A stretch of 64,000 nucleotides of DNA from Escherichia phage EC106: the sequence record ON210138.1. One strand, given 5' to 3'. Under the pieces are notes generated by a model. It saw nothing but the letters and a program-made list of their open reading frames with translations. It was not told where the DNA came from and did not search any database. Both the position numbers and the translations under genes were made by a program. Positions 19,283 through 45,197 of this stretch are shown piece by piece. Every line of letters begins with the position of its first letter. The first letter of the stretch is position 1.

Positions 19283-19322
19283 AAAAAAAAAAAAAGGCTC
19301 CCGTAAAAAGGAGCCTTAAACT
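19283..19322. terminator. bidirectional rho-independent terminator between convergent genes
   Basis: A13 run, then hairpin GGCTCCCGTAAAAAGGAGCC, then T-rich tract; lies between the thymidylate synthase stop and the stop of the minus-strand gene at 19323. Confidence 0.6.
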
Positions 19323-19694
19323 TTATTTTTCAGTATTCTTTGTGTTCTTTTCAGTAATAGCTTGGAGGGCTGATACTGATTGAGCCAGATTGTTCACACT
19401 GTCAGAGAATTTATCAAGAGTTTTGGTAAGTTTTGCATTCTCACCCTTAACATTCTCTAACTGGACTTTCTGGTTCTCCATCCCTAACTGAAGCATTCTC
19501 ATGTCAGACTGTAAGTCACGAATAGCTGAATAGTTACTTTTGGAATAATTATCTAGCTGCTGTAACTTTGTTGTGACAGACACTTCTTGCTTACCACTTG
19601 AAACTTGTATCGTGGTATACATCCCAATAACACTAAAAATACCAACAACAATTGCACCAATATTGTTTTTAAAAGCTTCCTCTAGCCACTTCAT
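19323..19694 (-). CDS. putative i-spanin (Rz-like): N-terminal TM segment plus coiled-coil
   Basis: 123 aa; hydrophobic IGAIVVGIFSVIGMYTTI followed by long heptad-like charged region. Confidence 0.4.
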   Translation of the reverse strand: MKWLEEAFKNNIGAIVVGIFSVIGMYTTIQVSSGKQEVSVTTKLQQLDNYSKSNYSAIRDLQSDMRMLQLGMENQKVQLENVKGENAKLTKTLDKFSDSVNNLAQSVSALQAITEKNTKNTEK

Positions 19695-19888
19695 TTATTC
19701 TCCCCCTTAAAAGCTTTTTCTAAGTTATCTACGAACTCATCATCAATAGGTGTGTCTGTCTTACCCGCAAGGTATCTTGCAAGCTTAAAGAACACTTTCT
19801 CAATCATGTATTCACTTAGAAGGGATAAAATGAGTTTCCAGAAGAAGCTACCTAGATTTTTTAGAAGAATTGCTAGGATTGTAGGCAT
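19691..19888 (-). CDS. small membrane-associated protein (possible lysis-related)
   Basis: 65 aa with hydrophobic N-terminus, adjacent to the spanin-like gene. Confidence 0.35.
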   Translation of the reverse strand: MPTILAILLKNLGSFFWKLILSLLSEYMIEKVFFKLARYLAGKTDTPIDDEFVDNLEKAFKGENK

Positions 19889-19967: not shown

Positions 19968-22325
19968 TTAAGCAGTTCTTACCCAAGCCATTAACTTGTA
20001 GAACTGGTTAGTAACACTAAATGCTGAACCAGAACCTGTACCACCAGTGTCACCACTAACCGTATGACTGTGAGCACCAATACCTACAGAGTGGGAATGG
20101 TCGCCAGCACCGCTAGTCCAAAAAGAGAAAGAATGACTGTGGTTCCCTGACGCATAAGTTTCATGACCACCAGACCTATATGCTACTGCATATGATGATG
20201 TTCTATTACCACCTACACCAGTACCGTTCCACGCCTCAATGTAGTGGGTGTGCTCACCATTTGTGCTAGTAGAACCACTACCATAGTGAGAATGACCACC
20301 AGTACTGTTAGTTCCCTTCGTACCATAATCAAAAGATGAAGTGGTAGCAGAGAAACTATGAGTGTGTGAAGGTAAATTACCAACAGCTAACGCCACAGAA
20401 TCTGAACCACCAGTTGTAGCAACATCTGAACCATTTGCTGCTGCAATTCTAATAGTTCTGCCAACACCATTGTTCAGGTACGTCCAAGTTAGACCAGGAA
20501 GTGCTGTATTAGGGTCAACATTACTGTTAAACCACGTTACAATACCTACTGGATAGATTTTGTTAAGGTCTGTAGAGTCACTAATTGCCTGTGCAATCTT
20601 CTGGTCAGTTTCAGCTTTAGTATATGCGCCGATATCTGAAGGGGTTGGTTTAAAATCAGTTGTATAAAACTGTGCTTCTCCAGCGTATTCACCCTTGTCA
20701 TCATAGGCATAGGTGAATGCTGCTAAGCCCAATGAGCCGTACAAAAAAGAGATGCCCCTTGAATGTGCAGCAGTCTTACTAGAGTGCGCAACATGAATTG
20801 CTAAATCTCTTAAGCCGTCAGTAACACCATTATTTCTGACAAAACCTGAGTACCCAATATTAAATGCTGAATGGTCTTCAAGGTTATTTACAGTTACAGT
20901 CATTAAGGATTGGTCTAATAGCTTAGTCTTAACAAAATATCTATTATCTAAGTTAGCCCAATCTTGTGGTTGAACCTGCCCATTAATATACAGGTTCTTA
21001 TTCATACTAACCAATGTTGGCTCTAGGGAAATTTGAGTGCCTGAAAAGCTGTTGCTCAAGGTTACCACGTTAGAATTAGCAGTTCCTACGCCCAGCCACC
21101 ACCTAGATACATTCGCAGTATCAACACCACGGATATATTGTGGCTGTCCCTGTGTTAAGCTCCTTAATACCAAACCCTCGTTGTCAGACACAATAGTTTG
21201 CACATTTGTGAAAGTATTAGATACATTAAGTTTAGCAAGATTACTCAAAGTAGCTGCCGGAATGTATCTAGAGTCAATGTTAGTCCAATCAGAAGGTTGA
21301 ACTTGACCAGTGATTCTTACATTCTTATTAAATGCTACGCCAGACGAGTTTAAGATAATAGAGGTATTGCCCTTGTAATCGTAAAATGTGATATCAGAGC
21401 TTGTATCACCTTTACCAATAAACCATAAATTATTGTACTCGCTATCTTTTGCTAGGATGAATAACTCCTCACCTACATCTTTATTCTGTAACATGATAGC
21501 AGCTTTATTAACTTTTACGGAAATAGGTTTACCGAATGTATTTTCACCGCTAAAAGCATTATTAGCAGCTAACTGTGCAAATCTCTGATTAGCTGCTGTC
21601 TGAGTAAAATATCTAGCATCTAAGTTAGAGAAGTCAGACGGCTGAACTTGACCAGTGATTGATAAAGACCTATTAAAAGAAGCAACCGTGCCTAGAGTGA
21701 GGATGGAACCTTGTTTACTCTCGATTTGAACATCAAGATTACCCCTAATCAGGTTCCCAATAGCCCAAGTTTTTTCATTACTTGCGTCCCTACCTACAAT
21801 AGCAGAGTATGCGCTATCCCCACTCACAGGAGATTTTAATGTTAACTGTTCCCCATTTGCGATGATAGTCTGTTTAGAATTGAATGAGTTTGTAACAGCA
21901 AGCCTTGCATACCTTGCATCATTCTCTTCATTAGCTCTCATCCCAAGTTCATTAGGGCTTGGTTTATTCAGAGTATGATAAACAGTTGCCGACCTTGAAG
22001 CATCTGCAATAGTTAGTTTAAGGCCATTTGCGTTGATTTTAAAAGTCTTTAAAACATCCCCAATAGTAATCTCAGAAGAGCCTGTTGGGTCAAAGACTGC
22101 CTTACCACCATAAAGTAACTTAACAATTCCTAAGTCACCCGTCATAGTGCTGCCAGCAATCTGAACAAATCTTTCTAGTTTAAAAGATGCTAAGAAGTCT
22201 TGATAGGTCATTCGACGGTCTTCATCACCCAGCATTTCAGGTCTCTTTTTAACTCTGACATGAAGAAGGTCATCTGAACGGATTGTATCGATTGAGTTTA
22301 ATTCACTCAACTTGTAATCTGCCAT
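19968..22325 (-). CDS. tail fibre protein with His-rich C-terminal tip
   Basis: 785 aa; three repeats of ITGQVQPSD(F/W)(S/T)N(L/I)D(A/S)RYF, C-terminal HSHS/HTHY-rich region shared with the neighbouring fibre gene. Confidence 0.7.
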
Positions 22326-44639: not shown

Positions 44640-45197
44640 TTACTTTCTCAGTGGATGAATAAAGAATGCCAACATAACTCTTTCCCTTGAGAATGCTCTT
44701 TCTTCTGGGACAACACTTTTTAGTTTCCATCCAACATAAATTCTCCAGTAAAACTGTTTACCAAAGACTTTAATTGATGGGATAAAAGCGAATAACCCCC
44801 AAGCATTACTGTTCCACATTAGGAGATAACCAGTCTGATTATCTTCAGGGTTAGAACTTACGTTGATATTACCTTTCCACTTAGTAACATCTTTTACATC
44901 TCTTCCTAATACATGGTAAGAGAAGTTATAAGCTTTGTTTCTCCAGAGCCATCCAACTCTCTGCATGTAGACACCAAGCTTACCAATCTTTCTAATCTTA
45001 GCCCATCTTTTAACGTGGCCTTCATCACCATCAATCGGGTTGTCATAGGTCTCCATCCATCTGAATCCAAAAGGTAGATGCCCTTTCTTCTCACTGTAGA
45101 ATGGAACTACGAAAGGTGCTAAGATGACTGCTAGGGTTGCTGCAAATGGTTCTAGTAAAGCTAAGAAAATCCATGAAGCATACTTCAAATATCTCAT
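44640..45197 (-). CDS. membrane protein embedded in tRNA array
   Basis: 185 aa; N-terminal hydrophobic segments, Trp-rich. Confidence 0.55.
   Translation of the reverse strand: MRYLKYASWIFLALLEPFAATLAVILAPFVVPFYSEKKGHLPFGFRWMETYDNPIDGDEGHVKRWAKIRKIGKLGVYMQRVGWLWRNKAYNFSYHVLGRDVKDVTKWKGNINVSSNPEDNQTGYLLMWNSNAWGLFAFIPSIKVFGKQFYWRIYVGWKLKSVVPEERAFSRERVMLAFFIHPLRK

Follow-up and report, generated by a model that had tools for sequence, protein, structure and literature searches.

In the stretch of the Escherichia phage EC106 genome analysed here (sequence record ON210138.1, 64,000 nucleotides; hereafter the window), a tail fibre gene encoding a 785-aa protein with a His-rich HxH tip like that of T4 gp37 (19968-22325, minus strand) is directly followed by two small genes on the same strand. 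The first (19691-19888, minus strand) encodes a 65-aa protein orthologous to Felix O1 ORF78 and assigned to PF26925 (Phage_PM2_Gpl) and phrog_402. The second (19323-19694, minus strand) encodes a 123-aa protein of phrog_4038, orthologous to Felix O1 ORF79, and ends the tail-fibre late operon. Both ORFs lie on the minus strand, at the positions and in the place downstream of the tail fibre gene that the original prediction had given them. Each is preceded by a Shine-Dalgarno sequence, and their stop and start codons overlap in an ATGA (19691-19694, minus strand), which suggests translational coupling. A bidirectional intrinsic terminator at 19294-19317, serving both strands and represented in Felix O1 by t79/t80, marks the end of both the minus-strand late tail-fibre/lysis operon and the plus-strand frd-td operon that converges on it; the convergent unit beyond it carries the dihydrofolate reductase and thymidylate synthase genes.

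The region between 17.8 and 22.4 kb shows 92-94% nucleotide identity to the Felix O1-like coliphages NBEco005 and VpaE1 and matches 286 phage records, nearly all of them Felixounavirus or relatives. By its nucleotide sequence, the phage can be assigned to Felixounavirus as an E. coli member of the genus (VpaE1/NBEco005/EC106-like), and synteny with Citrobacter phage Michonne equates the window with 14.9-83.7 kb of that genome. The 123-aa protein has 100% identity to a protein of EC106.

The gene pair is conserved across Ounavirinae genera, in the order fibre gene, P18-like gene (the family of the 65-aa protein, see below), 123-aa family gene and convergent td; the P18-like gene immediately precedes the 123-aa family gene in every Ounavirinae-type genome examined. 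Pairing is equally tight in relatives: the two genes abut or overlap by 1-4 nt also in Felix O1, Michonne, Zyzzx, Erwinia M7 and the metagenomic locus L021. The 65-aa protein is identical to Felix O1 ORF78 at 63/63 residues; the 123-aa protein is ~97% identical to its FO1a orthologue, with 13 differences in 350 nt relative to the Felix O1 gene. In the comparison with Michonne, 48 of the 63 differences in the 123-aa gene and 26 of the 32 in the 65-aa gene fall at third codon positions. This bias identifies both ORFs as real coding genes, and the substitution pattern indicates that they are under purifying selection. Public records name the 65-aa gene ‘holin’ or ‘L-fuculose phosphate aldolase’, or truncate it to 33 aa, and the 123-aa gene is a ‘holin’ or ‘putative holin’ in many of them, including the Center for Phage Technology record of Michonne; in the RefSeq Mushroom record the 123-aa orthologue is a hypothetical protein, which counts against the holin reading considered below.

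Dispersed lysis genes: endolysin and spanins

Lysis functions are split, as the original prediction held, with the pair after the tail fibres and the endolysin gene (52868-53332, plus strand) 33.2 kb away, followed by a terminator of its own (53342-53359). The 154-aa product was correctly recognised as a GH24 enzyme (PF00959, E 2.5e-40; phrog_7, E 3.3e-56), and the triad E15-x8-D24-x5-T30 can be read from the translation. The protein is soluble, without a hydrophobic segment, signal or SAR, and since it has no export signal, it needs a hole-forming holin. None lies beside it, again in agreement with the original prediction: when all gene-like ORFs were scanned for hydropathy, none of those between 45.2 and 55.7 kb contained a TM segment. 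A rival holin candidate is encoded on the plus strand, like the endolysin, and 2.3 kb beyond it (55671-56174), a 167-aa protein of phrog_4343 whose C-terminal region has two strong TMDs followed by a charged tail. Its 252 matches all came from enteric-host phages of the Felixounavirus/Mooglevirus type and included no Erwinia or Hafnia record, and the protein was not found in Kolesnikvirus or Zyzzx, both of which retain the 65-aa/123-aa pair. For this part of the genome, the evidence supports the two small post-fibre genes as the strongest candidates for a lysis function.

That lysis genes are dispersed in Felix O1-like phages has been described by Whichard et al. (2010) and in the announcements of phages Moogle, Mushroom, Michonne and Meda (PMC4319497, PMC4392139, PMC4591319, PMC6486253). 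The Moogle announcement calls the lysis genes ‘scattered around the genome’, the Michonne announcement refers to ‘a putative class-III holin’, and Whichard et al. (2010) list gp79 as one of five Felix O1 holin candidates; the statement of the Meda authors that ‘a holin was not identified’ counts against the holin reading. The P18 homologue of Felix O1 was published earlier still (Krupovic and Bamford, 2007), so the family identity of the 65-aa protein is not new. The T4-like dispersed layout, the post-fibre holin candidate, the solitary endolysin, the overlapped spanins and the P18 homologue are, in sum, all already known from the literature.

The 123-aa protein had originally been described as a spanin-like protein with a TM segment plus a coiled coil, and the architectural part of this description is well founded. 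A single hydrophobic segment spans residues 11-29 (Kyte-Doolittle 1.76), with nearly balanced flanking charges and 94 residues C-terminal to it, and the protein may adopt an N-in/C-out topology. AlphaFold modeling places a flexible linker after the segment, followed by a continuous helix over residues 40-122, with pLDDT values of 85-98 per 10-residue block over residues 41-120. One heptad register runs through this 83-residue helix, its a/d positions being 71% hydrophobic vs 19% elsewhere, a pattern reached by 0 of 2000 shuffles; from the residue count, the helix is estimated at ~12 nm in length.

An N-terminal TMD followed by a periplasmic coiled coil is also the build of an i-spanin, but the match is one of architecture only, and the spanin-like label was not borne out. 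Were the protein an i-spanin, an o-spanin should be embedded in its gene or lie next to it, and the only embedded lipobox-like ORF (35 aa, TTG start, LLGC, +1 frame, 19553-19660) overlaps the TMD-coding part of the gene and is not conserved: stop codons interrupt it or the lipobox is lost in IME338, Mushroom and Michonne, and Zyzzx lacks it. The 65-aa neighbour contains neither a cysteine nor a lipobox. The i-spanin-like topology is shared with lambda Rz/Rz1 and the Felix O1 ‘JH2’ spanins, yet the 123-aa protein has no lipoprotein partner and no homology to them, and its family aligned to the Michonne i-spanin with an hhalign probability of 0.5%. The shape differs as well: in i-spanins a hinge joins two helices, whereas the single helix of the 123-aa protein is uninterrupted.

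The real spanins of this group are encoded elsewhere. In Felix O1-like phages, a canonical overlapped i-/o-spanin pair adjoins the polynucleotide kinase and rIIB genes (86438-86948 in Michonne, 84161-84671 in Mushroom), with a clean LMSGC/IMSGC lipobox in the Michonne and Mushroom o-spanins. The overlapped locus is present in 244 records, and the ‘JH2’ overlapped spanin group of Kongari (2018; PMC6139136) includes Felix O1, Moogle and Mushroom. The Michonne and Mushroom spanins gave no significant match in the window by tblastn or blastn, and synteny would put the EC106 pair ~2.8 kb beyond the right-hand edge of the window. That the 123-aa protein is an i-spanin whose partner is embedded in its gene or adjacent to it is therefore highly improbable; that it is not a spanin at all can be stated with considerable confidence, and a putative holin is the more likely assignment.

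The 65-aa protein and the neighbourhoods of P18-like genes

The 65-aa protein matches phrog_402 at E 5.2e-22. Its PF26925 assignment was precomputed on cluster representatives 88-98% identical to it, and the local Pfam copy, presumably older than the PF26925 model, returned no match. The PM2 protein gp l (P18) is itself a match to phrog_402 (E 8.2e-14), and an HMM made from 37 members of the family gives it 23.4 bits; by these profile matches, the 65-aa protein is assigned to the PF26925 Phage_PM2_Gpl family, together with the lysis protein P18 (gp l) of corticovirus PM2. Across the 37 family sequences, F33, F34, T46, D49 and D50 are invariant, and T44, E26 and A37 are conserved in at least 90%, with T44 invariant in a 10-sequence alignment. 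The conserved core, an FF in helix 2 and a T-x-T-x-x-D-D motif, is present in full. A model based on the 37-sequence alignment has three amphipathic helices, the last of them acidic, and a Foldseek search of this model against viral structures retrieved unannotated family members only. The original prediction of a 65-aa membrane protein was right about the gene and its position; the membrane character is only borderline, given a best 19-residue hydropathy of 1.56, two lysines inside that segment and the amphipathic helices. For PM2, and for PM2 only, P18 is reported to help disrupt the outer membrane; P17 (gp k) is reported to permeabilise the cytoplasmic membrane (PMC6356626).

P18-like genes are found in several kinds of neighbourhood. 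Distant members immediately follow endolysin genes of three enzyme types: PF00959 lysozymes in a Shewanella contig with phage-like genes (L014), in the 39-kb contigs L015/L016 and in L023, an Amidase_3 (L017/L018) and, in Vibrio phage 1.079.O (L008), a gene annotated as a D-alanyl-D-alanine carboxypeptidase, an enzyme type taken from the annotation; another member lies behind the gene for a 1112-aa protein that contains a lysozyme domain. Krischvirus genomes carry gp37, a P18-like gene and Phage_holin_T (PF11031) in this order, and in PM2 the P18 gene lies at the late operon end, overlapping gene k. In phages 7-11, GAP52 and BUCT695, in Lahexavirus and in an SU10-like contig, the P18-like gene is located inside a head-tail module, a setting that is uninformative or mildly contrary to a lysis reading; in the SU10/7-11/GAP52-like podoviruses and Lahexavirus it has no lysis gene beside it.

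These head-tail placements, the position of both genes at the end of the tail-fibre operon and the T4 gp37-like His-rich fibre tip, which needs chaperones in T4, would be compatible with a pair that has nothing to do with lysis and acts in fibre assembly or late morphogenesis, or has another membrane role such as superinfection exclusion. We consider such a function improbable, and a morphogenetic role unlikely. P18-like genes also occur right after endolysins where no fibre gene is nearby, and in the tailless PM2, and the T4 holin gene occupies the same operon position. The more distant Ounavirinae-like contig L021 encodes a separate, dedicated Caudo_TAP fibre chaperone besides the pair, which, together with the members that have no fibre gene nearby, weakens the idea of the P18-like protein as a tail-fibre chaperone. 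A virion role had been named in the original prediction as contrary to a lysis function; among the 16 Felix O1 virion proteins detected by mass spectrometry, neither ORF78 nor ORF79 is present, whereas the adjacent fibre protein ORF77 is. In the RT-PCR table for Felix O1, ORF79 is assigned to the 5-minute class, but the major capsid gene falls in that class too, so these timing data are of doubtful value.

A candidate holin in a T4-like arrangement

Searches with the 123-aa protein returned little beyond its own relatives. Pfam gave no match at E<=1, including Phage_holin_T (PF11031), and searches of Pfam, NCBIfam and the PDB with the protein or its family returned generic coiled-coil noise below every cut-off. 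The family aligned to the T holin of GEC-3S and to PM2 P17 with an hhalign probability of 0.3% in each case. Recognisable phrog_4038 relatives occur only in Ounavirinae-type phages, among them Erwinia phage M7 (gp044), Hafnia phage Zyzzx and one metagenomic contig. The 7 HMMER matches among 1.84 billion representatives are Ounavirinae-type homologues or fragments, or long coiled-coil proteins, with no tie to any known family, and this narrowness counts against the holin reading. It is likewise a point against it that we know of no experimentally characterised holin with a long periplasmic coiled coil. Since no homology was detected, the assignment of the 123-aa protein as a holin rests on topology and position.

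Both can be compared with known systems. In Felix O1 itself the genes are orthologous and stand in the same order of fibre gene, ORF78, ORF79, terminator and convergent td-frd; Felix O1-like phages likewise have a solitary endolysin, with spanins near pseT/rIIB, and show no material difference from the window. In T4, t is the last gene of the long-tail-fibre operon (37, 38, t, convergent asiA), the position held here by the 123-aa gene, and both phages encode a soluble GH24-type lysozyme far from the holin position. The likeness extends to rIIA and rIIB, present in relatives of the window phage, and to the T4 spanins pseT.3/pseT.2, which lie beside the polynucleotide kinase gene, as in Felix O1-like phages. 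Like T, the 123-aa candidate has one TMD and a larger C-terminal part, which would be periplasmic in the orientation proposed here. It differs in having no sequence or profile similarity to Phage_holin_T, and the periplasmic part of T is globular, whereas that of the 123-aa protein would be a single 83-residue coiled coil. In addition, the Felix-type spanins overlap, whereas those of T4 are separated, and T4 has gp38 between the fibre genes and t, with no P18-like gene there.

In Krischvirus (RB49/GEC-3S-like), the same three-gene order contains a P18-family gene with 44-50% identity over the aligned region, but ends in a genuine T holin (PF11031). In PM2, the late operon ends in a closely spaced pair, a P18-type gene and a gene for a protein with an N-terminal TMD followed by a heptad-like helix; the latter protein, P17 (gp k), resembles the 123-aa protein in miniature. 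The differences from PM2 are the following: the order there is k then l, whereas here the l-like gene precedes that of the TMD protein; P17 has 53 aa vs 123 aa and no detectable homology; most of the N-terminal hydrophobic helix is missing from P18; and PM2 is reported to have no lysis endolysin of its own and is listed as spanin-less, whereas an endolysin is encoded in the window and spanins occur in relatives of its phage.

Taken together, we hypothesize that the two genes form a coupled lysis module at the end of the late operon in a T4-style dispersed system, a picture that we consider probable overall. That the 123-aa protein is the holin is a narrower claim, suggested by its topology and position, for which we see roughly even chances. 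In the proposed sequence of events, late transcription through the fibre genes would lead to coupled synthesis of the 65-aa and 123-aa proteins, and the latter would enter the inner membrane via its N-terminal helix, leaving the coiled coil in the periplasm. There it could build up as an oligomer through the coiled coil and trigger hole formation. The soluble GH24 lysozyme, encoded 33 kb away, would then escape through the hole and degrade the murein. The most likely role of the 65-aa protein would be an accessory one, helping to disrupt the envelope when the holin triggers or afterwards, as suggested by the outer-membrane function reported for PM2 P18 and by the gene neighbourhoods. The spanin pair near pseT/rIIB, and probably the P18-type protein, would complete the disruption of the envelope.

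The same features can be read in another way. The tight mutual coupling of the two genes, the i-spanin-like topology with its ~12 nm helix and the link of PM2 P18 to outer-membrane disruption would also suit a PM2-type envelope or outer-membrane module, a lipoprotein-free analogue of a spanin, with the holin encoded elsewhere, for example by the two-TMD protein with a charged C-terminus at 55671-56174, on the endolysin strand. In agreement with this, Krupovic's five non-enteric phages with P18 homologues (PM2, PaP3, P-SSM2, P-SSM4 and S-PM2) are all in Kongari's spanin-less list (PMC6139136). However, the phages considered here already possess a canonical spanin pair, the partner of the Krischvirus P18-like gene is a bona fide T holin, the TMD-plus-helix partner in PM2, P17, permeabilises the cytoplasmic membrane, and the two-TMD protein was not found in Kolesnikvirus and Zyzzx, where the pair is retained. 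We therefore regard a separate holin with the pair acting on the envelope as unlikely, though less so than a function outside lysis.

For a lysis specialist, nothing in this locus is surprising: it is an ordinary, already described feature, one component of which was mislabelled in the first reading. The practical consequence is one of annotation, in that a plausible spanin mislabel is corrected and sounder names can be given, namely P18/Gp l-family lysis protein for the 65-aa product and putative holin for the 123-aa product. Felix O1-like phages are widely used for typing and biocontrol of Salmonella and E. coli, and the recurrent pattern of a P18-like gene followed by a gene in the holin position narrows their holin candidates to one gene; it also prompts the question of why a P18-type factor is retained by spanin-bearing phages.

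More tentatively, the pair may represent a portable cassette shared by corticoviruses and tailed phages, composed of a P18-type factor and a single-TMD holin, in which the P18 component stays the same while the holin is exchanged: PM2 would use P17, Krischvirus T and Ounavirinae the coiled-coil 123-aa family. If so, the 123-aa protein would be an uncharacterised type of holin whose periplasmic part is a ~12-nm coiled coil, and proteins of the P18 type would serve generally as partners of holins or as factors that destabilise the envelope, kept even alongside spanins.

Membrane proteins and gene neighbours of the endolysin

The membrane protein encoded closest to the soluble GH24 endolysin (52868–53332, plus strand) is the 167-aa product of 55671–56174 (plus strand; phrog_4343). 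It is composed of a Cys/His-containing N-terminal part of 83 residues, two strong TMDs at positions 84–102 and 124–142, and a charged C-terminus, and is a candidate holin, competing with the 123-aa putative holin encoded at 19323–19694 (minus strand); a function in immunity or exclusion is equally plausible. Matches to the 167-aa protein were confined to Felixounavirus/Mooglevirus-type phages, and the sequence diverges fast, with identity of about 47% in the remotest matches, e.g., in Shigella phages Sf17 and Sf18. A single N-terminal TMD was present in two further proteins, both encoded on the minus strand: a 185-aa product (44640–45197; phrog_2143) and a 110-aa product (62493–62825; phrog_4375).

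Directly 5′ of the endolysin gene lies a plus-strand pair of the phrog_4463/phrog_3995 type (51865–52236 and 52233–52868), whose products share an N-terminal domain, as revealed by phrog_4463/phrog_3995 cross-matches (E-values 4.5e-15 to 7.8e-15). The second product additionally carries a C-terminal Ig-like domain of the Hoc/“tail protein” type (Ig_3, E-value 9.7e-13), and the 3′ end of its gene abuts the endolysin start codon. Such coupling of an endolysin to an Ig-domain gene is an unusual combination.

The locus downstream of the tail fibre

The tail fibre (19968–22325, minus strand) terminates in repeated His-x-His motifs, a feature reminiscent of T4 gp37, whose tip binds metal. The likeness of these fibres to T4 gp37 was described in the VpaE1 paper.

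Within the 123-aa gene, which the original prediction had described as spanin-like, a 35-aa ORF with a TTG start and an LLGC lipobox-like motif is located in the +1 frame (19553–19660, minus strand). Despite resembling an embedded o-spanin, it was ruled out as one: the ORF is not conserved in relatives and is therefore a chance ORF. Public records name the orthologues of the 123-aa protein and of the 65-aa P18-family protein (19691–19888, minus strand) inconsistently. The former appear as “holin”, “putative holin” or “hypothetical protein”, depending on the record; the latter is a “holin” in JN01, is listed for JLBYU32 as a “putative L-fuculose phosphate aldolase”, and has been cut to 33 aa in Mushroom.

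Conservation and genomic context of P18-type proteins

Alignment of the 65-aa family revealed an invariant or nearly invariant core, F-F ... T-x-T-x-x-D-D-(E)-F (residues 33–50 in the window protein), outside which identity is only about 35–50%. Conservation falls in the amphipathic and acidic region; the hydrophobic helix at the N-terminus is not part of it and is mostly missing from PM2 P18. This pattern hints at a function in specific binding, be it of another protein or of divalent cations, as opposed to mere insertion into the membrane.

Krupovic and Bamford reported P18 or its homologues in five non-enteric phages (PM2, PaP3, P-SSM2, P-SSM4 and S-PM2), and a literature cross-check placed all five on the spanin-less list of Kongari et al.; Felix O1 and RB49 carry both spanins and a P18 homologue. 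This distribution is consistent with P18-type proteins providing an alternative or additional way across the outer membrane.

On the TARA metagenome contig L025 (3669–4195), a P18-like gene overlaps the 3′ end of a 111-aa DUF5675 (PF18925) gene by 4 nt. Should P18-like genes directly follow endolysins as a rule, DUF5675 may itself be an enzyme that acts on peptidoglycan.
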